Assembly: GCA_002773725.1 (NCBI GenBank)
Contig: PFAH01000010.1
Coordinates: 1 to 57,941, forward strand
Source: Candidatus Colwellbacteria bacterium CG10_big_fil_rev_8_21_14_0_10_42_22
GTDB taxonomy: Bacteria > Patescibacteriota > Minisyncoccia > UBA6257 > Colwellbacteraceae
Direction: 5' to 3'
DNA: 57,941 nucleotides
The notes under the pieces are model-generated. The model searched no databases. It was given only the letters and a program-made list of their open reading frames with translations, and was not told the origin of the DNA. Position 1 is the first letter of the stretch. Every line of letters begins with the position of its first letter. The translations under genes were made by a program, and so were the position numbers. This document shows positions 1,317-52,549 of this stretch, piece by piece.

Positions 1317-2324
1317 TTAAGAAATGGTTAGAACCTCTTTATTGCGTGATTCAAATTGAACTACGATAAAACCAAAAGCAATTAGAAGCTCGTAAATAAT
1401 AAAACCTAGAAACGCCAGCGGGATATGGATTAAAAATTCCACACTCTTGACGGCTAGAATAAGGATTAATAGTAATAAAGCCAATCTAGTCGCCTGCGTT
1501 TGCTCTGACAAATCTTTCGTCTTAAATTCAATAAATGATTGGACGTTCTTAGTTAACGATTCATTTGTTTTAAGCTCGTACTTAAGGTAGTTCTCTGTTG
1601 ATTTTGACAATTCACTAACGAAAGTACGAATAGCAACTTCCTGTTGATATGCGGGCAACTTATTAAATCCGGGTATTTGGTTAGGCAATTTGTCTTTTGC
1701 ATAACCGCGCATAACCTCTTCTAGGGTGGTCTCGCTGGAGAAATTCTCCACCAAAGAGCCGAATATTGGCTTACCCACGAGTTCAACCATTCTAGCGACA
1801 CTTCTTTCTTCCACAAGCGTTTTGCCGTTAATAAACAAAATAGTGCCCGCATAAAGAGTTATTGCGATCAAAAGCAGTGTGATAGAAGGCCTGACTACTT
1901 TAAAAAACTTGATATGCACGGCCTGTTCTACTTCATAGCGTCCCTTAAAGTGAGAAATGGCGAATAATATAAAGAGCGCTATCCAAAGAGATGCTGTTAA
2001 GTTAAGCGATGTGCTGTATAAAAAAATGGAAAAACCGAGGGCGTTTAGAATAGAAACTGCGATGATTTGACCCGGCCTTCTTAAGAGTATTGATTGGATA
2101 GAGAAAAAAGCTATAAAGGCGAGTATCACAAATACGCCTGCAACGAATTGCCCCACGTCTATTAGATACCCAGCGATAAATGCCAGCAGGGTGGTGGCGC
2201 CTAAAATAGAATATATTTTAAAAAGAGAGATGGTATGACTGGCCGTCTTAATGGCCGACTTGTCTTTATTCATTAAACCGCCAATTAACTGATCTGGCGT
2301 CTTTCTCTTAAAGATTTCCTTCAT
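1317..2324 (-). CDS. Hypothetical multi-pass membrane protein between dnaK and dnaJ
   Basis: 335-aa ORF with several hydrophobic segments, 6 bp after the dnaK stop. Confidence 0.75.
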   Translation of the reverse strand: MKEIFKRKTPDQLIGGLMNKDKSAIKTASHTISLFKIYSILGATTLLAFIAGYLIDVGQFVAGVFVILAFIAFFSIQSILLRRPGQIIAVSILNALGFSIFLYSTSLNLTASLWIALFILFAISHFKGRYEVEQAVHIKFFKVVRPSITLLLIAITLYAGTILFINGKTLVEERSVARMVELVGKPIFGSLVENFSSETTLEEVMRGYAKDKLPNQIPGFNKLPAYQQEVAIRTFVSELSKSTENYLKYELKTNESLTKNVQSFIEFKTKDLSEQTQATRLALLLLILILAVKSVEFLIHIPLAFLGFIIYELLIAFGFIVVQFESRNKEVLTIS

Positions 2325-15085: not shown

Positions 15086-16444
15086 TTATATATTGTTGTC
15101 GAACGCCACCGAGAGGACTTGTCCCTCTCTCGGCATTAGCTTTGACCGAAAATGTTCTCTAACCGAGGTATCTATATCGCCAGCGCCCATAAAGATTACC
15201 ACCCCTTCTTCAATGAACGCAAGCGCCTCCTTGAGTGTTTCCTTATAAAAGATTCTTGTATTTTTATCAAGCTCTTTCTCTCTCTCCAAGAGAGCTTCAT
15301 ATAAGTCCTCGCTGGTTTTACCGCCCTCCCCTTCTCTGCCTGCAACCTGATAAATGGGCAGAAGACAAACCTTATCTGCGCTGTCAAAAGCTTCGATGAA
15401 ATCATCAAAAAGCATCGTCACTCGCTTAATTTGATGTGGTTGAAAAATGATTGTGATTTGCTTGTCTGGATACTCCGACTTTAATCCTTCGAGAGTTGTA
15501 CGAATCTCTGTTGGGTGATGTCCGTAGTCGCTGAAAAATGTAGTATCCTCCGGATATATCTTTTGGATAGGTTCAAGCTTTTCGAGTCGCCTCCAAACAC
15601 CTTTGAAATCCTGAAGTGCTTTGAAAGCAACGTTGCGCTCCACCCCAATCAACTTAGCCACTTGCCAAGCCGCCTCTGCATTTATTTGGTTAAAACTTCC
15701 CGGTATTTGAAGGGGCCAATTGAGCTCAATTCCAATTTCATTAAAAAACCCAATCTTGCAACTAACACCAGCTACTACAGATTGAGTGTGCTCGTCTTGA
15801 GAGTTCAGAATAGCTATAGAGTCGGCTGGTAGATTTTTCAGATATTGATTAAAACCACTTACCACACCTGCCATATCGCCATATGTATCTAGATGGTCCT
15901 CGTCTATGTTAGTAATAACTGCTATATGGGGCTTGTAGCTCCAAAATGCTCTGTCATATTCGTCTGCTTCTATAATCAAATATTTACTTTTACCTTTTCT
16001 AAAGTTGCTCCCGCCAAACTCTGCTAAGCGCGTGCCAACTATCACGGTTGGATCCAGCCCCGCCTCTATTAAGATACTCGCTAGCATACTAGTGGTGGTT
16101 GATTTGCCGTGCGTCCCCGAGACAGCCAAGGTAGTGTGTCGATCAACTAGTTCTCCTAAAGCTTGTGGGTATTTTAGCGTAGGGATTTTGAGTTCTCGGG
16201 TCTTTTTGAGCTCTAAACTATCGTCCTCAACAGCCGGACTATAAATAACTCTTTCTAGATCTTCAGTAATCGAGTCCTCAAACTCTCCACCCGTCTTAAT
16301 ATCCGCCCCCTTATCCATGAGAAGTTTGGTTAAATCAGAAGCAACTAAATCAGAACCAGAAACCTGCCATCCGGTGGCTAGATAGTATTGAGCGAGGGCG
16401 CTTACCCCTATACCTCCAATACCTATGAAGTGGACTTTTCTCAT
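15086..16444 (-). CDS. murC: UDP-N-acetylmuramate--L-alanine ligase
   Basis: HFIGIGGIGVS, GTHGKSTT, EADEYD and DYGHHPTEI motifs. Confidence 0.93.
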   Translation of the reverse strand: MRKVHFIGIGGIGVSALAQYYLATGWQVSGSDLVASDLTKLLMDKGADIKTGGEFEDSITEDLERVIYSPAVEDDSLELKKTRELKIPTLKYPQALGELVDRHTTLAVSGTHGKSTTTSMLASILIEAGLDPTVIVGTRLAEFGGSNFRKGKSKYLIIEADEYDRAFWSYKPHIAVITNIDEDHLDTYGDMAGVVSGFNQYLKNLPADSIAILNSQDEHTQSVVAGVSCKIGFFNEIGIELNWPLQIPGSFNQINAEAAWQVAKLIGVERNVAFKALQDFKGVWRRLEKLEPIQKIYPEDTTFFSDYGHHPTEIRTTLEGLKSEYPDKQITIIFQPHQIKRVTMLFDDFIEAFDSADKVCLLPIYQVAGREGEGGKTSEDLYEALLEREKELDKNTRIFYKETLKEALAFIEEGVVIFMGAGDIDTSVREHFRSKLMPREGQVLSVAFDNNI

Positions 16445-16578: not shown

Positions 16579-17757
16579 TTAGTAGTACTTTTCGACCATA
16601 TTACATATATATCCAGCCACATTGACCGGCTCGCCTTTGATTGGGTGGTGATGCATATCTACAAAGGGCAAGCTGTTTAATTCTATAATAGCTGAATTTT
16701 GCTCTTTCCAAGATTTTGATATATCGGGCGCAATAAAATCTATGCCTATCAACTTTGCCTTAAATTTTTGTGCCACTCTCCTAAAAAGCTCTAGATTATC
16801 TTTATGCACTTTCTTTGTCACCTCTATTATATCTGCCCCAAAATCAAGCAAGACCTTCTCCTGAAGATAAACAATTTTTTCTTGAGGCGGGATAGAGGCA
16901 AAGGCATATCTCTGTTTCTTTAGCAATTCTTCAGTTTTTTTATCTATGACAACTTTATAAAAAGTGCCATTAACTTCTCCCGCCTTTATTCTCTGTGGGT
17001 CTTCATTTTTAATATCAATCAATTGTGCAACTGTATGTTTGCCATCGCCAATAACATTCGCGGGTCTTCTCTCAACAACTGCAATATGCTTACCGTCTAT
17101 CACGGTTGCTCTATATACTCTTGTGTTTGGTATATATCTTTCAACTATCGCATATGGTTCGTAGCGAAAAACGCTTTTTAGCGCATCTTTGAGTGCATTC
17201 TCGTCTTGAATATTAATTCTCACGTGATGACTTGTAGAGCCCGATCTTGGCTTAATCACTAGTGGAAATCCAAGTTTTTTGCCATAATTTAAAGCTCTCC
17301 AATACTTTAATATTGAAAAACATTTACCCTGTGGAGTCGGCACTCCCATCTTTGTTAAAAGCTTTTTGACCGTTGCCTTGTCGTCTATAAATCCCCCATC
17401 TGCTCCTTTTATAAACTCGGCTCGAGGCAATCCCTCGAAAAGATATTTTCTACCACCCCTCTCAAGATAAAACATATTAATTGGACGCCCCAGGGCGTTG
17501 AAAAGAGTATAAAACTTATACCCCCTCTTAATACCTTCTTCTATAAATATGGAGGATCTCATATATATAGCAGGCGTTGATTCATATGGTCTAACCTTTA
17601 TAAGGCCTATGCCCATAAGCAAGCGTATAAATAGACCCTGTGTTTTATAAATCAGCCCACTAGAAGGGTTGGGCAAAAGATGAGATATTATACTCTCTAA
17701 ATATTTCTCAAAATGACTACGAGGAAGTGGAGCACAATCGAGACATTCTTTTTTCAT
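16579..17757 (-). CDS. ATP-grasp ligase (cyanophycin synthetase/GshAB-like C-N ligase domain)
   Basis: DDKATVKKLL, FPLVIKP, RRPANVIGDG, IGIDFI and IIELNSLP motifs. Confidence 0.8.
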   Translation of the reverse strand: MKKECLDCAPLPRSHFEKYLESIISHLLPNPSSGLIYKTQGLFIRLLMGIGLIKVRPYESTPAIYMRSSIFIEEGIKRGYKFYTLFNALGRPINMFYLERGGRKYLFEGLPRAEFIKGADGGFIDDKATVKKLLTKMGVPTPQGKCFSILKYWRALNYGKKLGFPLVIKPRSGSTSHHVRINIQDENALKDALKSVFRYEPYAIVERYIPNTRVYRATVIDGKHIAVVERRPANVIGDGKHTVAQLIDIKNEDPQRIKAGEVNGTFYKVVIDKKTEELLKKQRYAFASIPPQEKIVYLQEKVLLDFGADIIEVTKKVHKDNLELFRRVAQKFKAKLIGIDFIAPDISKSWKEQNSAIIELNSLPFVDMHHHPIKGEPVNVAGYICNMVEKYY

Positions 17758-32934: not shown

Positions 32935-33393
32935 ATGGTCGTCAACGATACTCCTGATTCGGGCAAAGGCATTCTCTACAACACAAGATGGGCTGGTGAC
33001 TACAGAGGGAAGCTCGAAGAAGCAGAGAAGAGGGGCGTTTGCATCTTCTGTCTCAAAGAACTCGAAAGGAGTGGGCGGAAGTTTCGACGTCTCGACTCGG
33101 CCATCATGTTCGAGAACGAGTTTCCCTCCAAGGGCGCGAAGATTCACCTGCTCATCGTGTCAGAACGTCACGTGACGAGCCCCGCCGATCTACATCTCCA
33201 CGAGTGGATGGACATACTCAGAATGTTCATTCAGGTAACCGAAGAGATGGGTGTTGATGGAGGAGCGTTGGTAGTTCGTTTCGGCGACTCCGACATCTCT
33301 GGGGCAACTGTTCACCACCTCCATTTCCACCTAGTGGTACCGAAGCTTGACGAGAGGGGTCTGTCAACTCCAGTCGCTTTCTACGTCGGGTAA
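32935..33393 (+). CDS. HIT-family protein (GC-rich, SD-led copy)
   Basis: CIFC zinc motif and HLHFH histidine triad. Confidence 0.85.
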   Translation: MVVNDTPDSGKGILYNTRWAGDYRGKLEEAEKRGVCIFCLKELERSGRKFRRLDSAIMFENEFPSKGAKIHLLIVSERHVTSPADLHLHEWMDILRMFIQVTEEMGVDGGALVVRFGDSDISGATVHHLHFHLVVPKLDERGLSTPVAFYVG

Positions 33394-33492: not shown

Positions 33493-33939
33493 ATGAGCAA
33501 GTCACGTTTTATAAACAAATCTCATGTCCGCACGGGTAACCAAAGCGAGATTATGGACGAAATTGAAAAAGAAGGGGTTTGTCCTTTTTGTGAAGAAAAT
33601 TTAGAACGTTTTCATGGCAAACCGGTAGTTGAAGAAACGCAGTATTGGTCATTATTAGAGGCAAAATGGCCGTATAGCCATGCGCGCGCTCATCTTCTTT
33701 TAGTTGCAAGTCGTCATATGGAAGATATTTCCGAGCTTGAACCCGAAGAGTGGAAAGATATGCTGGAGCTAGCCCAATGGGCATCTAATCAATATAAAAT
33801 AGCCGGTGGTGCCTTGGCGTTAAGGTTTGGTGATTCTAATTTGACGGGGGCAACGGTCCACCATCTACATGCCCACCTCATAGAGCCCGAAGCGGACGAA
33901 GACGGCAAGGCAAAGCTAGTTAATTTTCCTATTGGTTAA
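33493..33939 (+). CDS. HIT-family protein (host-like, leaderless copy)
   Basis: CPFC and HLHAH motifs; TAAAAT 6 nt before ATG. Confidence 0.88.
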   Translation: MSKSRFINKSHVRTGNQSEIMDEIEKEGVCPFCEENLERFHGKPVVEETQYWSLLEAKWPYSHARAHLLLVASRHMEDISELEPEEWKDMLELAQWASNQYKIAGGALALRFGDSNLTGATVHHLHAHLIEPEADEDGKAKLVNFPIG

Positions 33940-34772
33940 ATTCCTACTGGAATTTTAATAAATGGGTGGGGGTCATATCCCTCAAGTTCAAAATCGTCTG
34001 GTTTAAACTCAAATATATCTTTAACGTCTTTATTTATCTTAAGCTTTGGTAGTCGGCGCGGTTCTCTTGTAAGTTGTTCCTTGATTGGATCCACTTGGTC
34101 AAGATAAATGTGCGTGTCTTGAGTGGTGTGTATGAAATTGCCGGGTTTATATCCGGTTACTTGAGCCAACATCACTAAAAGTAATGAGTATGAGCTGATA
34201 TTGTAGGGCACTCCAATCGGTACATCTGCGCTTCTTTGAACCATATTGAGATGAAGTTCTTGAGTTTCTAGATCTACGTAACATTTAAAATCTCCGTGGC
34301 AGGGCGCCACCATCACATCATCAACCGAAGCAGGATTATAGGCAACGACCTTGTGTCGTCTAGAGTCGGGGTTCTTTCTAAGTTCTTCCACAAGGCGTTT
34401 AATTTGGTTAAGTTCGCCGTCTCTTTTAACATCTGGCCAATGAATCCAGTTCGGTCCGTATATCGGCCCAAAGTCCCCTTCTTCTAAACCATATTTCTCG
34501 GCTACTTCCTTAACACCCCATACGTCCCATATTTTAACGTTATATTTGTGCAGATAATCCCACCTGCTCTCGCCAGACAAGAACCACAAGAGCTCTACTA
34601 CTACGTTATGAAAATTTATCTTCTTGGTGGTTAGTACTGGGAAGGCGTCTTCGCTTACGGGGTACGTTTTAGTCCTTACAAAGACAGACAAGTCACCCGA
34701 ACCCTGTAGGGTTTTTTCTCTCCTCTTGCCGTTTTGAAGCACATCTTCAACTAAATCTAAGTATTGTTTCAT
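33936..34772 (-). CDS. thyA: Thymidylate synthase
   Basis: ELLWFL, catalytic PCH, QRSAD..PYN (dUMP-specifying Asn), DTHIY. Confidence 0.95.
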   Translation of the reverse strand: MKQYLDLVEDVLQNGKRREKTLQGSGDLSVFVRTKTYPVSEDAFPVLTTKKINFHNVVVELLWFLSGESRWDYLHKYNVKIWDVWGVKEVAEKYGLEEGDFGPIYGPNWIHWPDVKRDGELNQIKRLVEELRKNPDSRRHKVVAYNPASVDDVMVAPCHGDFKCYVDLETQELHLNMVQRSADVPIGVPYNISSYSLLLVMLAQVTGYKPGNFIHTTQDTHIYLDQVDPIKEQLTREPRRLPKLKINKDVKDIFEFKPDDFELEGYDPHPFIKIPVGI

Positions 34773-35593
34773 ATTTTAACTTTATAAATCTTAATATTAT
34801 TTGTGTCCAATATCATCTTTCCTTCCAGATTGGATGAACCTTCGCCAAAATAACATTCCCCTATGCCCGATGCGACTATGAGTTTTGCACATGCAGAACA
34901 TGGAAAGTGGGTTATAAAAAGTTTGGTTCCATCTAAAGATATACCCGCCTTGGCTGCCCTTGAGATGATTTGTTGTTCGGCATGAATCGTACCGGATAGG
35001 TCAGGTCTTTCCCCTACTTCCATATAGTCCCTAACGTCTCCTATTTGATAAGGTGTGTGGTCAGATGGCGTTCCCTGATTGTATGCCTCAAGTATTACTT
35101 TTCCATCTTTTAACAATACTGCACCAACTTGTCGCCATTGGTCAGAGCTTTTTTCCGCCTGGGTGTATGCCCTCTTTATCATGGAAATGCTTTTTTCATC
35201 CAAGACCTCTTCTTCTTGGGACGGCTCTTCTTTAAAGACGCTAGATCTATCTCTCTTGAGAAAGACGTTCAACCATTTGATATCCGCCCCTTTTAGATGT
35301 CTTTCTACAAGCGCCCTAGAGGCATCGTCTTCAACCATTATTAAAGAATCGTCTTTTAGACCTGCAATATTCTCTTTTTTAAGTATTTCTACGTCTTCAT
35401 ACCCTAAATTCTGAAGAATCTTTTTTGCAACGTCTTCTTCCAAGGGTCTGATGGCGTGTGCGTATGGAATAAGTTTTTTTGAAAGTTCCTCTCCAATAAT
35501 ATAGACCCTTTCAATCTCCTGACTGTTGTTATCTAAAATGTCTAAATACCCTTGATGAATAACGGGCATTTGCAAAACTAGATTACGCTTCAT
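34769..35593 (-). CDS. dCMP deaminase-like protein with ~130-aa N-terminal extension
   Basis: HAE and PCSAC zinc motif; N-terminal PVIHQGY; start at MKRNLV overlaps the upstream stop. Confidence 0.85.
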   Translation of the reverse strand: MKRNLVLQMPVIHQGYLDILDNNSQEIERVYIIGEELSKKLIPYAHAIRPLEEDVAKKILQNLGYEDVEILKKENIAGLKDDSLIMVEDDASRALVERHLKGADIKWLNVFLKRDRSSVFKEEPSQEEEVLDEKSISMIKRAYTQAEKSSDQWRQVGAVLLKDGKVILEAYNQGTPSDHTPYQIGDVRDYMEVGERPDLSGTIHAEQQIISRAAKAGISLDGTKLFITHFPCSACAKLIVASGIGECYFGEGSSNLEGKMILDTNNIKIYKVKI

Positions 35594-36170
35594 TTTCTTT
35601 TCCATTTTCACCAAATAAGTCCTGTTGAGGCACTCTTTTGGGTTTACGAAGTTTACGAATGTTTTTCGCCAAATGTGTTTTTAAAACATTTTGGATAATG
35701 TCGGTTGATGATGTTTGCTCGGCCTGGCGTGGAATCACCTCCAGTTTTCCACAATATTTATTAATCATCTCTTCTTGTTCGGGTGTATAACTGTCCCCGC
35801 TGACAGATATAAAAACGTCCATCGGCACTTGTTTTATCATTCCATACTGCCAGTTGCCCCTGATATCCACATCGTGTATGGGCACGACATAATCGATACA
35901 TTCTTGATAACAAAGCATCTCCATTCTTTCCTCCTCGGGAATGATGGGTCGATTAGGTCCTTTATAAAACTTAATCGCTTCATCACTATCCACGCCAACT
36001 ATTAAGACGTCTCCATAATCTTTGGCTGTGTTTAGATATCTAACGTGTCCGATGTGGAGCATATCCCATGAACCAATGGTACAGACCACTTTATGGCCAA
36101 GTATTTTGTGGGCTTCAACTTTCTTCGCCAGCTCTTTGTAGTCCGTGACTATTTTATCCCTGATGTTCAT
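35583..36170 (-). CDS. Cytidylyltransferase/adenylyltransferase-family (HIGH) protein, RfaE-II-like
   Basis: GSWDMLHIGH, VGVDSD, KGPNRPI..EER and TSSTDII motifs. Confidence 0.88.
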   Translation of the reverse strand: MNIRDKIVTDYKELAKKVEAHKILGHKVVCTIGSWDMLHIGHVRYLNTAKDYGDVLIVGVDSDEAIKFYKGPNRPIIPEEERMEMLCYQECIDYVVPIHDVDIRGNWQYGMIKQVPMDVFISVSGDSYTPEQEEMINKYCGKLEVIPRQAEQTSSTDIIQNVLKTHLAKNIRKLRKPKRVPQQDLFGENGKENEA

Positions 36171-36223
36171 GTTTGATATAAGCTATACTTCTACTAAACG
36201 GATTATAAGTTAGGATATAAAGC

Positions 36224-36712
36224 ATGGCAAAAGTTAGCATCATAGCTGCTATTTCTAAAGAGAAACGGGCGCTTGGAAAAGATAATCAACTTCTTTGGAA
36301 TATCAGCGAAGACCTCAAAAGATTTAAGCGCATCACACTCGGACATCCCATTATCATGGGGCGCAAAACATACGAATCTATCGGCAGGCCCCTCCCCGGC
36401 AGGACGAATATAGTTGTCAGTAAAAATAAAGGTTTTAAGGCCGAGGGGTGCTTAATCTTTGGTTCACTAGAGGAGGCAATCGATGAAGCTAAGCGTCTAG
36501 ACATAGATGAAATATTTATAATTGGAGGTGGGGAAATATATAAACAAACCCTGCCTTTAGCAGACAAACTCTATTTGACTCTGGTTGAGGACGAGATGGA
36601 AGCGGACACATACTTCCCTGATTATTCAGGGTTTGAAAAAACTCGTGAGGAGCGGGGCGAGCAAGGTGAGTTAAAGTTCTCTTGGGTTGATCTAGAACGC
36701 GATTTATCTTGA
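36224..36712 (+). CDS. folA: Dihydrofolate reductase
   Basis: DLKRFK, IIMGRKTYESIGRPLPGRTNIV, IGGGEIY and ADTYFP motifs. Confidence 0.97.
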   Translation: MAKVSIIAAISKEKRALGKDNQLLWNISEDLKRFKRITLGHPIIMGRKTYESIGRPLPGRTNIVVSKNKGFKAEGCLIFGSLEEAIDEAKRLDIDEIFIIGGGEIYKQTLPLADKLYLTLVEDEMEADTYFPDYSGFEKTREERGEQGELKFSWVDLERDLS

Positions 36713-37970: not shown

Positions 37971-38020
37971 ATGCGCTCTAAATAATAGCGAAGGAGTCGA
38001 CTCTTCGCAAGACCAGTCAT

Positions 38021-38055
38021 AAAAGAATGATGCCACGCTGGTTGCGTGGCATCTG
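38021..38055 (-). repeat. 35-bp terminator-type repeat, copy 1
   Basis: Identical to 40408-40442; minus strand GATGCCACGC-AACCA-GCGTGGCATC followed by ATTCTTTT. Confidence 0.9.
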
Positions 38056-38070
38056 TGTGAGGATTTCTTT

Positions 38071-38496
38071 CTAGTCATCCCCACCGAAGAGGTCTTCCAG
38101 GAAGCCAATGATGTGCGGAGTTTCCGGTTCCGACCAGACCGCAATCCAGCCGGAGCGCAAACCCACGGAGGGCTTGTTCCACATCTTGTGCTCGTCCTTG
38201 AGAGCGGCCCAGAAAATGTTTCTGAGAATCTTCCCTTTTTCCTGGAGTTCATGAGCCTTGATAGCCAATCTCTCGGCTTGCTGAGTGTCCTGTGTGAAAT
38301 TTGCCTCAACGTTGATTTCCATTGAGGTCTTTATCCATCTAATGGCCGTCAGGTAGAGACGCCTCAGCTCATCACTGACTTCGCCGACAACATGGTCCCT
38401 ATCAGGATTCACATCGACCATGGGCTCAAACGGATTACCGGGATTGAGTTCAACGAGCTCCAACTCACTTGCGAGCAAATCTACCCAAATTGACAC
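38071..38496 (-). CDS. GC-rich orphan hypothetical protein
   Basis: 141 aa; GTG start after GGGGAG SD; upstream TTGACG. Confidence 0.8.
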   Translation of the reverse strand: MSIWVDLLASELELVELNPGNPFEPMVDVNPDRDHVVGEVSDELRRLYLTAIRWIKTSMEINVEANFTQDTQQAERLAIKAHELQEKGKILRNIFWAALKDEHKMWNKPSVGLRSGWIAVWSEPETPHIIGFLEDLFGGDD

Positions 38497-38563
38497 AATA
38501 CTCCCCTTTTTGTCTATGTCCTACTTTTAGGATTACAGATTTTATAAGTATTCGTCAAGTACT

Positions 38564-38911
38564 TTACCAATCCCGAGCCACGTTCGGCTCCCCCTTTGCG
38601 CCTACCAATCTCTTGATATCTTGTCCGCTAAACTTTTCGTTCAAAATATCTACGGCATAGACATTGTCTAGATACGTTGAAAAGACGTGCGCCTCTCTGC
38701 CTATATCTGCATCAATATACCCAATAACGTAATCTCTCGGTTTACTACTTTCCCTGTCGTCCCGTGGATAAATATCATACGGGGATATTTTTCTAATGGC
38801 CCACTGTTCTGTGGTTTCTTTCTTGAAAGAGATTTCCACCTTATTTCTACCCTGAATGGCTTTGATAATTTTCTCTTTAATGGCGGTTTTGTCGTCTATC
38901 ATTGAGCCCAT
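38564..38911 (-). CDS. Stand-alone WYL-like domain protein
   Basis: IIKAIQ..KVEISF....R.ISPYDI pattern; TATGAT 6 nt before ATG. Confidence 0.6.
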   Translation of the reverse strand: MGSMIDDKTAIKEKIIKAIQGRNKVEISFKKETTEQWAIRKISPYDIYPRDDRESSKPRDYVIGYIDADIGREAHVFSTYLDNVYAVDILNEKFSGQDIKRLVGAKGEPNVARDW

Positions 38912-38950
38912 GTTTAAATCATATCAAATAAAGCTTTTATATAAGATACA

Positions 38951-38979
38951 TTGACGGTTTACTACGTTTATTGTATTAA
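38951..38979 (+). promoter_or_regulatory. sigma70 promoter of the 39012-39573 unit
   Basis: TTGACG-17bp-TATTAA. Confidence 0.7.
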
Positions 38980-39011
38980 ATCTCTAGACCCTTTACTCGA
39001 AAGGAAGATGT

Positions 39012-39338
39012 ATGCCCTTCGTAACTATTCGTCGCAAAGAAGATGCACTCACTGACGGATCCGAGGGAACTCTCTCGGCGCTCTGCGACTTGTTAGAGGA
39101 GAAGTTGCCCTCGATTGTGGGTATGGGTGGCGGTATCGAATTCGACACCCCCTTCTTCGACAAATCGGCTCGTCACGTCCCCGACGTGCGGGTGGAAGTC
39201 GAAGGCCACGCTTATCTCGAACGCGACGAAGATCGGATTGCTAGCCAACTGCGGACCGCCATCGACTCTTCGGGAATCGTTCCCGAAGATGTTTTGTTGC
39301 AAATCGCGGTGAAACTCCCCCGCCTCGGCGTTGCTTAA
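39012..39338 (+). CDS. GC-rich orphan, possible tautomerase-superfamily fold
   Basis: Begins MPFVTI (Pro-1 after Met removal); beta-alpha-beta pattern repeated. Confidence 0.7.
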   Translation: MPFVTIRRKEDALTDGSEGTLSALCDLLEEKLPSIVGMGGGIEFDTPFFDKSARHVPDVRVEVEGHAYLERDEDRIASQLRTAIDSSGIVPEDVLLQIAVKLPRLGVA

Positions 39339-39360
39339 CAGCAACGAGGAGAAACTCCCT

Positions 39361-39573
39361 ATGGGTAAGAAGTTCAGGAAGATTTCTCTAAACGTCGACC
39401 CAGACGTTTATAAGGAACTACAAGCTCGAGGTGACATCCGCAACGTCTCGGATTACATCAGGAAGAGGATGGATCCCAAATGGGGCAACTTCAATCTCAG
39501 CGAGGGTGAACGATTGTTCGTCGTTGACCAAGACGGCAACCCTCTTCGCGAGATTGTTTTCCTCTATCTCTAA
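39361..39573 (+). CDS. GC-rich orphan, ribbon-helix-helix-like
   Basis: RKISLNVDPDVYKEL....NVSDYIRK; GAGGAG SD; start trimmed to MGKKF. Confidence 0.65.
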   Translation: MGKKFRKISLNVDPDVYKELQARGDIRNVSDYIRKRMDPKWGNFNLSEGERLFVVDQDGNPLREIVFLYL

Positions 39574-39706
39574 CCCCGTTCCCCGAACAAAGCAGTACGG
39601 CTTCGTGAGGGGGCGGGGTCGTATTGTTTTTGAATATTCTAATCTCCCACTGGACGACGCTAGAATTTATCTGTTATACATATAAAACCGAAGAGAGGAG
39701 TATTGC

Positions 39707-40066
39707 ATGGCCTTTGACACGACTAGGTTCACCGAAGAGTCCATCCTCGAAACCGCTGACATCTACAGGCGAATTGAGGCCCTCCAACAGGAATCAGCCA
39801 ATCGTCACACAGATGAGTTGAAGCTCCATAGTGGAGGATTCGGTGATTCGCCAGATCTTCAGGAACTGATTCACTTCGTCATCAAGACCCTTGAGGGAAA
39901 TGGTCTTGAACCATCTTTCGAGATGGTGATGATGATTCTCTGGGAAAGAGGTCTATACAAGGGAACCTTCAGGAGTGCGTACTCGAGGATGCTGGACCAA
40001 GGGCTTCTCGGCACACACGGAGATTGCATCCTCCACATCCCCATACTCGAGGAGGTGAGAAGGTGA
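39707..40066 (+). CDS. GC-rich orphan hypothetical protein
   Basis: 119 aa; GAGGAG SD. Confidence 0.75.
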   Translation: MAFDTTRFTEESILETADIYRRIEALQQESANRHTDELKLHSGGFGDSPDLQELIHFVIKTLEGNGLEPSFEMVMMILWERGLYKGTFRSAYSRMLDQGLLGTHGDCILHIPILEEVRR

Positions 40067-40314
40067 CCACCAACACAAAGATGGACGAAGTAATCGAATT
40101 CGTTGCCTCTGTGGCAACCGACGTTGTCAACGCATACAGCGGTGATCCTGTTGGTTGGGCAGATCTTGAGATCGATCTGACCATATGGCTCATGAGGGAG
40201 ACGGATCTTGGACCACTCGATGCTGCAGATGTTGCCAATAGAAGCATCTGGCACGGCATCAACACCGGGAGGATGAACTTCCACCTCGGAGACCTCAGTC
40301 CTGCTACAACCTAA
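40063..40314 (+). CDS. GC-rich orphan hypothetical protein
   Basis: GTG start overlaps the upstream stop; AGGAGGTGA SD. Confidence 0.7.
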   Translation: MTTNTKMDEVIEFVASVATDVVNAYSGDPVGWADLEIDLTIWLMRETDLGPLDAADVANRSIWHGINTGRMNFHLGDLSPATT

Positions 40315-40365
40315 CACAACCCCCATCGCCAACGAAGATTCCCTCTTCGGCTCGGCGTCGGGGGT

Positions 40366-40405
40366 TTCTTCGTTTTTAGATATTCAAAAACTACTAATCC
40401 TCCAC
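40366..40405 (+). repeat. Conserved post-terminator motif, copy A
   Basis: TTCTTCGTTTTTAGATATTCAAAAACTACTAATCCTCCAC; similar to 50463-50502 and 39624-39650. Confidence 0.75.
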
Positions 40406-40407
40406 CA

Positions 40408-40442
40408 AAAAGAATGATGCCACGCTGGTTGCGTGGCATCTG
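40408..40442 (-). repeat. 35-bp terminator-type repeat, copy 2
   Basis: Identical to 38021-38055. Confidence 0.9.
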
Positions 40443-40451
40443 AGTGGGCTC

Positions 40452-40694
40452 CTATGAGGCCGTGGTAACGACAATGGGCTCTGGATCTATCACTCGCATA
40501 CATCCCCAAGGCGCGAACGCCAGTCTCGAATAGTTTCCCGAAACAAGGCTGGCGTTTGCAAAAGAGATGTCGCCGGAAGTGAATCCATCCGCCTCCAATG
40601 CTTCAATCTCGTCGAGAATGGGAAACGGTTCATCGCCGTAGAGCTCCACAATCTTCGCCAGAATCTTGTTGATAGTTGCCAGGTCATGAGCCAT
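40452..40694 (-). CDS. GC-rich orphan hypothetical protein
   Basis: 80 aa from MAHDL; GGAGG SD. Confidence 0.7.
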   Translation of the reverse strand: MAHDLATINKILAKIVELYGDEPFPILDEIEALEADGFTSGDISFANASLVSGNYSRLAFAPWGCMRVIDPEPIVVTTAS

Positions 40695-40826
40695 AGCTTT
40701 CCTCCAAGGTGCAATCTTCTTATTCAAACTATACACAAAAAAAGCGGTATACCGCAAAACTTTACTAATCTCTCGTCAAAAAATCCCATGTGCACCATCC
40801 CATCTTTGACGGAGGGATTCTTTGAA

Positions 40827-41255
40827 TTAATCTAGATAATCTCTTACTTCTTTTAATACGGCTCTCGCTTCTTCGTGCGTTAATATGTCTTGAGCTTCAT
40901 CAAATGAGACCCACTTTGATTCTTCTATCTCTTCTGTCGGGTCTGGGGCAATCTCTTTATCAATAGTCGAAACAATTCCCACAAAATACGTAACCGTTTT
41001 ATCGTACATGTTGCCATCTCTAGGAAATGAATATTCTTCTACAAATTTATTGCCAAAATCAATCTCAACCTCGCTAATTCCAGTTTCCTCCAAAAGCTCT
41101 CTTCGCGCGGTTTGTTCAATCGATTCCCCTTCTTCTGCATGACCTTTAGGGAAAGCCCAGTGGTCACCTTTGTGTTTGATAATGAGGATTTTTGTTGATT
41201 CATCCCCTTTCTTAAACACTGGGATGACTCCCATTGATTCGTCTTTGATAGTCAT
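40827..41255 (-). CDS. NUDIX hydrolase (Ap4A hydrolase-like)
   Basis: HWAFPKGH..EGES..QTARRELLEETG Nudix box. Confidence 0.92.
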   Translation of the reverse strand: MTIKDESMGVIPVFKKGDESTKILIIKHKGDHWAFPKGHAEEGESIEQTARRELLEETGISEVEIDFGNKFVEEYSFPRDGNMYDKTVTYFVGIVSTIDKEIAPDPTEEIEESKWVSFDEAQDILTHEEARAVLKEVRDYLD

Positions 41256-41308
41256 GCCTAAATTCTACACCCAAAAACGTGAAAACCGCCTTTGAGCGGT
41301 TAATCTGC

Positions 41309-41341
41309 GTAGAGGGAGAAGCTCGATGCTTCTCCCTCTAC
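41309..41341 (-). terminator. 14-bp perfect hairpin downstream of ORF 41349-41708
   Basis: GTAGAGGGAGAAGC-TCGAT-GCTTCTCCCTCTAC; second hairpin at 41282-41301. Confidence 0.7.
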
Positions 41342-41348
41342 GACTTCC

Positions 41349-41708
41349 CTAGCTGCTAGTACCCACCCTCTCTCCAGGGTAGATGAACAGCATCACCTGG
41401 GCGATGCCGAGAAGGAAGATCCCAACGACGACGAACGCTGCCGAGAGTTCCTCCACTGCAATCGAGGCAACGAAGGTTGCGGAGGGCAACCCCAGAAGCA
41501 CGAATGTCGCCGAAGAGCGAAGTAGTTGGTCGTCCTCCTTCGACACAATCCCGAGAAAGGCCCACGCGAGGACAATGACGAAAATCACCGTCAAATCCCA
41601 CGCGAGAAAGTCCTCTCCGTTCGCGAATGCTTCCTTCGCTCCCGAAGGGAGGCATCCAATGAACACCATCGCCACGAAAAAGACGAGCCTGTACGTCAAC
41701 GAGAACAT
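41349..41708 (-). CDS. GC-rich orphan membrane protein (~4 TM)
   Basis: Hydrophobic 119 aa; GGGAGGT SD. Confidence 0.75.
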   Translation of the reverse strand: MFSLTYRLVFFVAMVFIGCLPSGAKEAFANGEDFLAWDLTVIFVIVLAWAFLGIVSKEDDQLLRSSATFVLLGLPSATFVASIAVEELSAAFVVVGIFLLGIAQVMLFIYPGERVGTSS

Positions 41709-41739
41709 TTTGACCTCCCGGTCATTGGTCTAGGAACTG

Positions 41740-41793
41740 GATTTCAACTCCTATCCCAAACCACATTTATAATCTGGGATAGGAGTTGAAATC
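41740..41793. repeat. Perfect 19-bp inverted repeat
   Basis: GATTTCAACTCCTATCCCA-16nt-TGGGATAGGAGTTGAAATC. Confidence 0.9.
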
Positions 41794-41824
41794 AAGTGTA
41801 GATAGCTTAAAGAACTGTGAATGC

Positions 41825-41853
41825 ATTATACCACGATATACTTCATTCGTCAA
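41825..41853 (-). promoter_or_regulatory. Consensus sigma70 promoter
   Basis: TTGACG-17bp-TATAAT with extended -10 TG. Confidence 0.8.
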
Positions 41854-41997
41854 TATCAACTCCAAATCCCCCGTCAAAAAAAATCATTTTTCAAAAATTT
41901 AGAAATCTAATGAATAATCAAATTATTCAATGATAAAGAAAATCCAGTTATTGGAGCTGAATTATTTTGTTTCTGAGAAAATGTGTGGAGTGAACCC

Positions 41998-43017
41998 CTA
42001 ATCCACCCCATAAGGCCTATAAACCTCAGGGTCTATGGTCCTCTCAAAACAAGCCCTCCCCTCCTCATGATCCCAAGAATCATTCGTACCTCCCGGCCAT
42101 GGATAAGAAATCGCCATATCTTCTATGTACCCTCCTTTCCCGCCCATCGGCACTATGCCTCCCCCGCGATAGTACTCCACCCAACCTTCCGGCATTGGCT
42201 TAGTAAAGGTGGCGCAAAGCTCAAAAGTAAGGGGCTTAAGGGCATTGTATTCATATGTCCTACCCTTTTCAAATTCCGGATCAACCGGTAGAGAATATCC
42301 CTGCAGAGGGTCCTTTAGGTCATTTAATGTTTTCGGCAACACTTCTTTATTCTGCCAATAACTCACTATCTGCCATTGAATATTCTGTAAATCCTCAATA
42401 CGTCTTTGATCAAGACGAAGCGCCCTCTGCTCCATGGGCGATCCGATTATCATAAAAGCTCCTATCACGGCTGATGTCACAAACACCACCGCAAGAGTTA
42501 GGCACAAAATGCGAACTGCTTTCCTTTTTTCTGTGTTTTTAAGCTCATAGAGGTAATAAAGACCCACCACTAGTGCTGTTACCAAGGTCGCTGCCACCTT
42601 AAGTAAAAAGCGAGTTGTAATCTCTCCCTCCACGAAATAGCGCACCAAAGTGATTAGGTCAACAACTATGGTAATAGTTGCTAGAAAGACAATGAGATAG
42701 AGCATCCATTTTTTTATCACTAAATCAACTCGCCCCAACCTGCCCTTGAGCATTTTGGTCCAAAAGTAAGAAGCCAGAATAAAAACAGGGAAAATAACTA
42801 AGAGTGTCGCAAGCGCCGACCGCATAGCAGACAGCTCGTATGGATTGTATCCATATTGATAATCCGCATTTAGGACATCTGGAAACTTTTTATTCAAAAC
42901 CCCAAAAACAACATTTAGAAATGAAGTAACGGTGGTAATGAGCCATACAAGAATAAAAAGCGAAGTAAAGAAAAACTTCGGGCTCAACTTCGGCTGATGT
43001 TCTACCGCTTCTTCCAT
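41998..43017 (-). CDS. Membrane protein, DUF5671-like, with C-terminal pseudopilin-like domain
   Basis: Five TM segments followed by RIEDLQNIQ..LP..L..L..P.DP...YEY....FELCATF. Confidence 0.7.
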   Translation of the reverse strand: MEEAVEHQPKLSPKFFFTSLFILVWLITTVTSFLNVVFGVLNKKFPDVLNADYQYGYNPYELSAMRSALATLLVIFPVFILASYFWTKMLKGRLGRVDLVIKKWMLYLIVFLATITIVVDLITLVRYFVEGEITTRFLLKVAATLVTALVVGLYYLYELKNTEKRKAVRILCLTLAVVFVTSAVIGAFMIIGSPMEQRALRLDQRRIEDLQNIQWQIVSYWQNKEVLPKTLNDLKDPLQGYSLPVDPEFEKGRTYEYNALKPLTFELCATFTKPMPEGWVEYYRGGGIVPMGGKGGYIEDMAISYPWPGGTNDSWDHEEGRACFERTIDPEVYRPYGVD

Positions 43018-51145: not shown

Positions 51146-52549
51146 ATGGATAAATATCCTTCTCTTATAGAAAAAGAACTCCCCGCTCCCCCGCATTGGA
51201 GTAAGGCGCTTGGAGTTGGAATTGTAGTGATGGGGCTTGCCATTGGCACGGGCGAGCTTATCTTGTGGCCCCACCTTGTTACAAAGCACGGGCTTTCACT
51301 TTTGTGGTTGGCACTTTTGGGAATTGGTTTTCAATACTTTATTAACCGCGAAGTGGCTCGGCATGAAGTAGCTACGGGTGAGGGGTTTTTTACCACTTCA
51401 GCTCGTATATTTAAATGGTCTGTTTTCTTTTGGCTACCGTCAGCTGTGTTGCTCTACATCTGGCCAGGGTGGGCATCTGCTATCGGCACCACCTTAAATG
51501 CTCTTTTTGGATTTGGGACACACCTTTTTTGGTCTTGGATGACATTGGGTTTAGTGCTTCTTTTAACGTTTAGTGGACGAATTGCATACACCATGCTCGA
51601 AAAATCTCTCAAAGTACTCGTACCCACTTTTTTCACGCTTTTACTCGTAATTAGTTTCTTTAATTTAAAACTTGCTGACCTCCTAGAAGCCGGGAGGGGC
51701 GCCCTTTCTTTTGGAGTGATTCCAGAGGGAGTGGATATAAATGTATTACTTGGAGCAATTGTTTTTGCTGGTGCTGGTGGGATGCTCAATTTGGCAGTAT
51801 CTCTATGGTATCGGGATAAACAAGTTGGAATGGGAAAATATGTAGGACGTATCACAAATCCGATTACAGGCAAAGTGGAGGCCACGCCCGCCACGGGATA
51901 TAAGTTTGATGTCAAAAACCCCGAGAACATGAAGCGCTGGAAGGGTTGGATGAGATACGTGACGATTGATCAGGGCGTAATTTTTTTCTTGCTTGGTTTT
52001 ATTACACTTTTTCTTCTAAGTGCCAATGCCTATGCCGTCTTGTCTCCTCAAGGCATCGTGCCGGAGGGCTTACAGGTAGCGGTAGTCCAAGCGCAAATCT
52101 TTGGAAATGTCTGGGGACCTATCGGATATAATCTTTTCTTGATAATGGCATTCTTAATGATTTTTGCCGTGATGTGGACAGTGATTGATGCTCTAACTCG
52201 AATAATCTCGGATATTGTCTATACCAATGCTCATGTCGGTCCTTTTCAGAAAATATTTTTTGTATTCAATAAACTTTCTCTAAGTCAGCTCTATTACATC
52301 TCGATAGTACTTATCGTAATCTCTGGAGCTTTCCTACTCCTACTCGAGCAACCATTAACTCTCCTTGTGATATCTGGTGTGCTTTCGGGCCTCACGATGG
52401 CGCTCTATACGCCCTTCTTGATTTATGTAAACAACAAACACTTGCCCAAACCACTTCGACCCTCAATAATTACAAGCTTGATAATGATGGGAATTTCGAG
52501 TTTCTATATGTATTTTGCGTTTAGAATTGTTGCCTCCTATTTGGCATAA
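51146..52549 (+). CDS. NRAMP-like/APC-superfamily transporter
   Basis: GTGELILWP motif, ~11 TM segments; leaderless-type promoter. Confidence 0.75.
   Translation: MDKYPSLIEKELPAPPHWSKALGVGIVVMGLAIGTGELILWPHLVTKHGLSLLWLALLGIGFQYFINREVARHEVATGEGFFTTSARIFKWSVFFWLPSAVLLYIWPGWASAIGTTLNALFGFGTHLFWSWMTLGLVLLLTFSGRIAYTMLEKSLKVLVPTFFTLLLVISFFNLKLADLLEAGRGALSFGVIPEGVDINVLLGAIVFAGAGGMLNLAVSLWYRDKQVGMGKYVGRITNPITGKVEATPATGYKFDVKNPENMKRWKGWMRYVTIDQGVIFFLLGFITLFLLSANAYAVLSPQGIVPEGLQVAVVQAQIFGNVWGPIGYNLFLIMAFLMIFAVMWTVIDALTRIISDIVYTNAHVGPFQKIFFVFNKLSLSQLYYISIVLIVISGAFLLLLEQPLTLLVISGVLSGLTMALYTPFLIYVNNKHLPKPLRPSIITSLIMMGISSFYMYFAFRIVASYLA

Follow-up and report, generated by a model that had tools for sequence, protein, structure and literature searches.

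Thymidylate synthesis is among the best-understood and most drug-targeted of pathways. In Gram-positive bacteria and eukaryotes the canonical cycle comprises dCMP deaminase, the thymidylate synthase ThyA and dihydrofolate reductase (DHFR), together with SHMT, and the dNTP-synthesizing set of phage T4 (dCTPase/dUTPase, dCMP deaminase, thymidylate synthase and DHFR) likewise groups dNMP-producing enzymes with a deaminase and a thymidylate synthase. Here we analyze a contig of 57,941 nucleotides (PFAH01000010.1, assembly GCA_002773725.1), hereafter the window, from Candidatus Colwellbacteria bacterium CG10_big_fil_rev_8_21_14_0_10_42_22, in which members of this cycle are encoded beside a HIGH-family nucleotidyltransferase (the transferase, 'CTPt' family) and two histidine-triad (HIT) proteins. 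We find that this locus is, with little doubt, a typical copy of a coupled thymidylate module that extends across the Patescibacteria, is translationally coupled here and is fused in some lineages. The module consists of the transferase, a deaminase of two domains, HIT hydrolases (one or two) and a thymidylate synthase; in the window the synthase is ThyA, accompanied by DHFR. ThyA, DHFR and the catalytic domain of the deaminase are ordinary members of their families, and SHMT, dUTPase, MazG and Tmk are frequent neighbors. Unlike the canonical cycle, which has no counterpart of the transferase or of HIT, the module has a deaminase with an extra N-terminal domain and without the motif G(Y/W)N(A/G), and half of the related loci use a fused thymidylate synthase of 480 residues, not ThyA and DHFR.

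The additional parts can be set beside other described systems. ECT (3elb), CCT (4zcp), GCT/TagD (1coz) and HldC/HldE domain II (5x9q) have in common with the transferase the HIGH fold, HxGH, a conserved Lys and an RTEGISTT-like RQAExTSST. ECT is built of two tandem transferase domains, which the transferase and a putatively degenerate copy of it at the N-terminus of the deaminase would resemble; unlike in ECT, this second transferase-like domain sits on the deaminase polypeptide, except in fused forms. Unlike known cytidylyltransferases, the module transferase has deoxynucleotide enzymes as partners, not lipid, teichoic-acid or heptose genes. Human CDADC1, V. cholerae DcdV, the anti-phage dCTP deaminases and the PBCV-1 deaminase likewise join a dCMP-deaminase-type domain to a non-catalytic or nucleotide-binding N-terminal domain, and canonical allosteric regulation is lost or altered in these enzymes as in the module deaminase. 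The added domain is HIGH-transferase-like in the module versus a second deaminase or a P-loop kinase-like domain in CDADC1/DcdV-type enzymes, and the context is housekeeping dTMP synthesis versus defense for the anti-phage deaminases. The NadD-YqeK and NadM-Nudix pairs, like the module, couple a PF01467 transferase to a nucleotide-pyrophosphate hydrolase (acting on a dinucleotide or ADP-ribose in these pairs; HIT and, at some loci, NUDIX in the module); unlike these pairs, the module has a transferase of another subfamily (NMNAT models, ~16 bits), a hydrolase of another family and pyrimidine deoxynucleotide partners.

If two extra, uncharacterized enzymes belong to the thymidylate pathway, the textbook scheme as applied to Patescibacteria lacks a step or a control, and the pattern spans a radiation that accounts for much of the diversity of bacteria. 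Its members are ultra-small symbionts with minimal nucleotide metabolism, in which the acquisition and partitioning of deoxypyrimidines bears on host dependence.

A coupled gene set conserved across Patescibacteria

Genes in the window were assigned from a listing of open reading frames (ORFs) together with Pfam and NCBIfam family scans. The operon lies on the minus strand and begins with the transferase (35583-36170, 195 residues; CTP_transf_like), followed by the extended deaminase (34769-35614; dCMP_cyt_deam_1, 67 bits) and by thyA (33936-34772, 278 residues; Pfam PF00303 Thymidylat_synt, 308 bits), with a 4-nt overlap between the last two. The longest deaminase ORF (281 residues) starts at a TTG at 35614 and overlaps the transferase by 32 nt, and a start at the ATG at 35593 (MKRNLVLQMPV...) gives 274 residues and an 11-nt overlap; this ATG is most likely the true start, because it fits a 274-residue database protein (P0001) and the N-termini of homologues. 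On the plus strand, folA (36224-36712, 162 residues) diverges from the operon, with 53 bp between the transferase and folA starts, and the genes for HIT-a (32935-33393, 152 residues) and HIT-b (33493-33939, 148 residues) both converge on thyA, the stop codons of HIT-b and thyA sharing TTAA. A first-pass annotation of the window had described these genes, strands and overlaps, the divergent folA and the converging HIT genes, and the ORFs and family scans bear it out on each.

Scanning one genome per species (GTDB) with an alignment of the transferase yielded 54 loci, in which ORFs were taken from stop to stop and identified by profiles and phmmer. The complete set of four (transferase, extended deaminase, HIT and thymidylate synthase) is present in 45 of these 54 species-level loci, with a median span of 3.3 kb, and in the remaining 9 the contig ends ≤3.6 kb downstream of the transferase. 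A HIT gene was found in 49/54, with two in some loci. In the reverse direction, starting from the deaminase in metagenome contigs and counting loci with ≥4 kb on each side, we find transferase, HIT and thymidylate synthase at 24 of 24 well-flanked loci. All six neighborhoods inspected with precomputed Pfam labels also contain these four parts, HIT being represented by a HIT or HIT-like gene, surrounded by DHFR, SHMT, MazG, dUTPase, Dcd, Tmk or Ndk. Chance cannot account for an arrangement found again in each related locus of sufficient length, and by these counts the linkage pointed to in the first-pass annotation is conserved in both directions. Homologues of the transferase and deaminase come from metagenomes and metagenome-assembled genomes of the candidate phyla radiation (CPR), to which the organism of the window belongs as well; nearly all of the 54 loci are labeled as Patescibacteria, the groups being Zambryski-, Nomura-, Adler-, Vogel-, Wildermuth-, Nealson-, Falkow-, Buchanan-, Moran- and Abawacabacteria, Paceibacterota and WWE3, and a few loci bear automated Gammaproteobacteria or Pseudomonadales labels.

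Gene order and orientation vary by lineage with the set retained, in four main layouts (arrowheads give orientation): transferase > deaminase > ThyA > < HIT; transferase > HIT > (NUDIX >) deaminase > thymidylate synthase; transferase > deaminase > HIT > thymidylate synthase; and DHFR < transferase > HIT > < ThyA < HIT < deaminase. Retention of the set despite this reshuffling speaks for a functional link and not for synteny that has merely been frozen. The variable neighbors are Tmk and the dNTP-to-dNMP enzymes dUTPase, MazG, NUDIX and Dcd, and the cluster often adjoins the conserved secE-nusG-rplK block. A scan of viral contigs for the transferase returned no relatives. We found no description of the module in the open-access literature, which is not proof that none exists; the core of the pathway is known, and the two extra universal parts (transferase and HIT) and the putative pseudo-transferase domain appear to be new.

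In a complete Nealsonbacteria genome, a transferase-HIT-NUDIX-deaminase-thymidylate synthase run is directly preceded by DUF4430 and DUF6580 genes (L035:6945-7992), whose products may serve in the membrane or in transport, and is followed by Tmk and a DeoC-like aldolase.

Natural fusions join the parts

A search with the N-terminal domain of the deaminase (the N-domain) uncovers P0258 (469 residues), in which transferase, N-domain and deaminase form a single polypeptide and whose gene adjoins ThyA and a 315-residue DHFR protein. Two further proteins, P0326 (482 residues) and P0327 (493 residues), are built in the same way, and because the three are only 37-38% identical to each other, the fusion must be an old one that has been kept. 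DHFR-HIT fusions are encoded at L057:2521-3447 (minus strand, 308 residues) and L064:7726-8664 (minus strand, 312 residues), with DHFR N-terminal and a CxxC histidine-triad domain C-terminal, and the 315-residue protein beside P0258 is probably another. Through these fusions the transferase is linked to the deaminase, and HIT to folate recycling within the thymidylate pathway, consistent with the first-pass view that the transferase and HIT enzymes, which are outside the textbook pathway, are nonetheless functionally tied to the deaminase and ThyA. The module proteins are small and soluble-looking with defined partners, and the natural fusions are ready-made structural constructs.

The extended deaminase carries a probable transferase-like N-domain

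The deaminase domain (residues ~135-281; 34769-35212, minus strand; PF00383) holds the dCMP_cyt_deam_1 match, which is confined to residues 143-257, and the zinc-binding motifs IHAEQ (HAE) and FPCSAC (PCxxC). Its best sequence and fold matches are the dCMP deaminases 4p9c, 2hvw and 1vq2, with target TM-scores of 0.77-0.84 for the fold, and the score against the ComEB equivalog TIGR02571 is below cut-off (54.5 versus 219.45 bits). The canonical dCTP/dTTP allosteric motif of dCMP deaminases is G(Y/W)N(A/G) (PMC12088426); we find it in 0 of 106 distinct members of the deaminase family from the fetched loci, the window protein having AYNQ at this position. At 274-281 residues, versus ~150-190 for a single-domain dCMP deaminase protomer, the protein is indeed 'extended', as the first-pass annotation had it. 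Going beyond that claim, the extension appears to be a degenerate transferase-like domain, and relatives contain the transferase-deaminase and DHFR-HIT fusions.

The N-domain (~125 residues from the ATG at 35593; 35213-35593, minus strand), recognized from a structure model and the transferase profile, gave nothing significant in Pfam or PDB sequence searches. Across the aligned family, H-x-G-Y close to the N-terminus (PVIHxGY) does not vary, and an FL(R/K)(W/R)D motif is also present. AlphaFold2 models have a pLDDT of 90.8 for the full-length deaminase and 90.0 for the N-domain alone; Foldseek with the full-length model returned deaminase matches only, and the N-domain was therefore modeled separately. 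For the N-domain alone the best folds are HIGH-signature nucleotidyltransferases, namely PanC (pantothenate synthetase), HldC, GCT, FAD synthetase and PPAT, with Foldseek probabilities of 0.9-0.99 (HldC, 0.99 and TM 0.52; GCT, TM 0.52/0.58). In several family members the transferase profile in turn aligns with the N-domain, keeping HxG[HY], VGxxSD and RPIxPE in register (E 6e-4 to 8e-3 against the ORFs of fetched loci), and the N-domain is without the C-terminal RTEGISTT part of the transferase fold. With moderate confidence, we conclude from these matches that the deaminase extension is a diverged, probably non-catalytic paralogue of the neighboring transferase in which HxGH has become HxGY.

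A profile search with the N-domain returned 565 clusters at 50% identity (E ≤ 1e-3). Among the best 150 of these, ~70% are roughly 260-320 residues long, i.e., deaminase-fused; nearly all of the full-length ones are fused to a deaminase, and the shorter ones resemble fragments.

The transferase is as conserved as a ribosomal protein

The transferase passes the superfamily models PF01467 (58.7 bits, cut-off 21) and TIGR00125 (54.3 bits, cut-off 27.7) and carries the HIGH motif (GSWDMLHIGH); HIGH and the RTEGISTT-like RQAEQTSST are invariant or nearly so across the family. It falls below the cut-offs for HldE domain II (TIGR02199, rfaE_dom_II; 100.9 versus 181.5 bits), NF008454 (99 versus 521 bits) and GCT/TagD (TIGR01518, g3p_cytidyltrns; 39.1 versus 165.4 bits), and is not a standard ADP-heptose or CDP-glycerol synthase, an identity that the first-pass annotation had named as one that would refute its pathway. 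The inspected neighborhoods, as distinct from whole genomes, contain none of the heptose-pathway genes GmhA, HldE kinase and GmhB, and no teichoic-acid genes. Among solved structures it is closest to the CTP-using ECT (the best match), CCT and GCT and to HldC, and it aligns with CCT over the full length; a Trp and a Tyr common to the transferase and CCT are also kept in GCT and hence do not discriminate. NMNAT, PPAT and FAD synthetase were considered as identities and ruled out (NCBIfam, 15-33 bits versus cut-offs of 104-290).

Homologues across the Patescibacteria are 60-77% identical. In the 13 loci with every gene comparable, the median identity to the window protein is 63% for the transferase, 59% for ribosomal protein L11, 55% for the deaminase domain, 50% for ThyA, 46% for DHFR, 35% for the deaminase N-domain and 33-39% for HIT. 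Because its median identity matches the level of L11, the transferase is, by this measure, under very strong constraint and as conserved as that ribosomal protein.

In some lineages the transferase homologue carries a long N-terminal extension without a Pfam match: P0352 (L065:1573-2961) has ~300 extra N-terminal residues, including an HD-like 'HDWGE' motif, and P0357 and P0358 (the latter at L064:6001-6834) have ~100. All three still adjoin deaminase, HIT, ThyA and DHFR.

HIT proteins and two kinds of thymidylate synthase

HIT-a and HIT-b are 40% identical to each other, and both carry CxxC and a histidine triad of the form HHLHxHL (HHLHFHL and HHLHAHL, respectively), with scores of 31 and 32.4 bits against PF01230 (cut-off 21.5). 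The nearest solved relatives of HIT-b are Fhit (E 7.6e-4) and an archaeal HIT protein, weak matches with E near 8e-4, which hint weakly at the Hint/Fhit branch. Average-linkage clustering of 71 HIT sequences gave no split into two orthologous HIT subfamilies.

ThyA scores 280.5 bits against TIGR03284, above the cut-off of 108.35, and it aligns over its full length with solved thymidylate synthases, its APCH and VPYNISSY falling on APCH and VPFNIASY of 6auj. With the catalytic Cys and the dUMP-specifying Asn kept, as the first-pass annotation had noted, ThyA is on the evidence of these motifs a canonical dUMP-type enzyme. FolA passes DHFR_1 (180.6 bits, cut-off 25, residues 4-155) and is below the cut-off of the type-3 DHFR equivalog (140 versus 168). 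CPR folA genes are functional and common and complement an E. coli folA deletion (PMC11974145); the set of transferase, HIT and deaminase is absent from that paper.

DHFR accompanies ThyA in 21 of 23 ThyA-type loci. Of the 45 complete loci, 22 have, in place of ThyA and DHFR, a ~480-residue fused thymidylate synthase composed of an MtrA-like domain, a divergent thymidylate-synthase core and a PterinBD-DUF4346 domain, and DHFR is missing from all 22. Examples are encoded at L035:10320-11762, L001:7285-8739 and L063:2167-3711. By its domains, the fused protein looks like a pterin-carrier-linked thymidylate synthase, and we found no paper on such an enzyme of the ~480-residue type. At L064 (9700-11976), a 758-residue protein with a ThyX (Thy1) domain directly adjoins a cluster of ThyA/DHFR-HIT, deaminase and transferase; this genome seems to carry both kinds of thymidylate synthase.

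A proposed route to dTMP and its alternatives

What we say here of function, beyond family membership, is drawn from comparative genomics and predicted structure. We propose that the N-domain is a copy of the transferase fold that has lost catalysis, and that the two form a pseudo-dimer like the tandem domains of ECT. This pairing would tether an active site that handles cytidine nucleotides to the deaminase, and would replace the usual dCTP/dTTP allosteric site. The transferase would convert (d)CTP and a small phosphorylated acceptor to a (d)CDP-linked intermediate and pyrophosphate, and the HIT enzyme would free (d)CMP from that intermediate; the deaminase would then convert dCMP to dUMP and ThyA dUMP to dTMP, with DHFR recycling folate. 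Transferase and HIT together would form a gate that commits cytosine deoxynucleotides to dTTP synthesis. CCT and ECT accept dCTP, and Fhit/Hint-type enzymes release a nucleoside monophosphate from NMP-X. The presence of dUTPase, MazG, NUDIX and Dcd in the clusters shows that the theme of the neighborhood is dNMP from higher phosphates. Taken whole, the coupled module with docking and (d)CTP-to-(d)CMP chemistry is a tentative proposal, which we think somewhat likelier to fail in one of its parts than to hold throughout. The first-pass annotation had suggested that (d)CMP is harvested from CDP-conjugates of the host by reverse transfer; the evidence fits a supply or control of (d)CMP from (d)CTP or (d)CDP-X in general, and bears neither on the direction of transfer nor on a host origin of the substrates. 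A stricter form of our proposal, in which throughout the Patescibacteria cytosine deoxynucleotides enter dTMP synthesis only via a conjugate such as dCDP-X, made by the N-domain-docked transferase and then resolved by HIT or deaminated while conjugated, is doubtful; if true, it would be an undescribed obligatory step in a pathway central to a major radiation of bacteria, and would bring with it a regulatory logic of a new kind.

Several observations weigh against this proposal. The conserved residues of the transferase gave no specificity for CTP, dCTP or ATP or for an acceptor. The fold match of the N-domain is weak (Foldseek E 6e-3 to 3e-2, TM ~0.5), and hhalign of the N-domain against the transferase aligns the same motifs with a probability of only 1.4%, which is not significant. 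Some fused proteins have lost the motif His of the N-domain (PVMTQAY in P0327), a loss that fits a scaffold role and speaks against nucleotide binding by the N-domain. Taking dCTP to dCMP with two enzymes looks redundant and more complicated than it need be, because MazG, NUDIX and dUTPase occur in many of the same clusters, and nothing specific to the model predicts a fusion of DHFR with HIT.

Two other readings keep the module intact and change what its parts do. It is possible, if unlikely, that the extended deaminase acts on dCTP, dCDP or the (d)CDP-X of the transferase and not on dCMP, with the N-domain holding the phosphate or conjugate end and HIT, together with dUTPase, MazG or NUDIX, releasing dUMP for ThyA. 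Deaminases of the DCTD fold that have added domains or altered pockets and act on triphosphates have precedents in CDADC1, the PBCV-1 bifunctional deaminase, the XP-12 deaminase and DcdV-type enzymes (PMC12088426). The anti-phage dCTP deaminases match the window deaminase locally, the canonical allosteric motif is lost, dUTP-processing enzymes are frequent neighbors, and ~10 loci have the order transferase > deaminase > HIT > thymidylate synthase; gene order differs between lineages, however, the catalytic domain matches dCMP deaminases best by both sequence and fold, and the N-domain is without the phosphate-binding RTEGISTT region. We give less credence to a mainly regulatory role, in which transferase and N-domain form a (d)CTP-sensing pseudo-dimer that switches the deaminase in place of the lost allosteric site, the transferase product is irrelevant or a signal, and HIT does general house-cleaning of dinucleotides or adenylates. 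Such a role would suit an N-domain that is a degenerate transferase paralogue, the loss of the allosteric motif and the resemblance of the transferase-deaminase fusions to the tandem-domain architecture of ECT, and it has a parallel in NadD, another HIGH transferase, which shares an operon with the Ap4A hydrolase YqeK. Against it, the full set of catalytic motifs and the ribosomal-protein-level conservation of the transferase point to an active enzyme with a needed product, and the linkage of HIT, no looser than that of the rest of the module, and its fusion to DHFR in certain lineages speak against unrelated house-cleaning.

The two remaining explanations place the transferase, or the whole module, outside thymidylate supply. 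Database names for the homologues are ADP-heptose synthase-like and the cluster often lies beside secE-nusG-rplK, as would be expected of an independent housekeeping enzyme, making for example a CDP-alcohol, ADP-sugar or dinucleotide cofactor, that is adjacent by inherited synteny near this block. We regard this as very improbable: the set is kept despite its shuffled order, three diverged proteins join transferase and deaminase in one chain, the deaminase carries an apparently paralogous domain, the scores are below the equivalog cut-offs for HldE domain II, GCT, PPAT, NMNAT and FAD synthetase, and the neighborhoods examined have no heptose or teichoic-acid genes. The first-pass annotation had also entertained a module that makes or removes a modified nucleotide for defense; for such a role with a modified pyrimidine nucleotide, in defense or counter-defense, speak local matches between the deaminase motif and models of anti-phage dCTP deaminases, and a weak match of HIT to ThsC. 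The NF041025/PADLOC dCTPase match is, however, at domain level only, limited to residues 208-256 (49 residues) with 63.8 bits versus a cut-off of 400, and does not extend to the N-terminal kinase-like domain of that family; the module is universal, single-copy and set among housekeeping genes near secE-nusG-rplK, and DHFR, SHMT and Tmk are close by; the Asn of ThyA is of the dUMP type; and the viral-contig scan gave no relatives of the transferase. We accordingly give up the defense role as the least credible of these readings, with hardly any chance of being right.

Other features of the window

In the divergent spacer between transferase and folA, a consensus scan finds a sigma-70-like promoter match upstream of the transferase (36202-36230, minus strand; TTGCCA-17-TATAAT, 11/12). 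This is a pattern match only, and the divergent region holds as many such matches as shuffled sequence yields.

The other genes of the window are housekeeping genes, encoding DnaK/J/GrpE, DnaB, CysRS, PBP, MraW/Z, L7/L12, L10, a MurC-like ligase, EF-Ts, S2, TrmD, SMC, RNase III, NusB, RNase HII, DnaE, ThrRS, MiaA, GatB, L11, NusG, SecE, MetK, GyrB and PheST. Surrounded by such well-annotated genes are two ORFs with no Pfam family at E ≤ 1e-4 (1317-2324, minus strand, 335 residues; 51146-52549, plus strand, 467 residues). Between 14983 and 17843, three tRNA genes (Thr-GGT, Thr-TGT and Tyr-GTA) are interleaved with a Mur-ligase gene (15086-16444) and a 392-residue ORF (16579-17757) that has only a sub-threshold match, to the D-Ala-D-Ala ligase C-terminal domain. 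Next to secE, the region 38000-42000 has a G+C content of 0.465-0.475, versus ~0.38-0.43 in most of the window, and contains short ORFs on both strands without recognizable families (e.g., 38564-38911, without a Pfam match); it may be a foreign or fast-evolving island.

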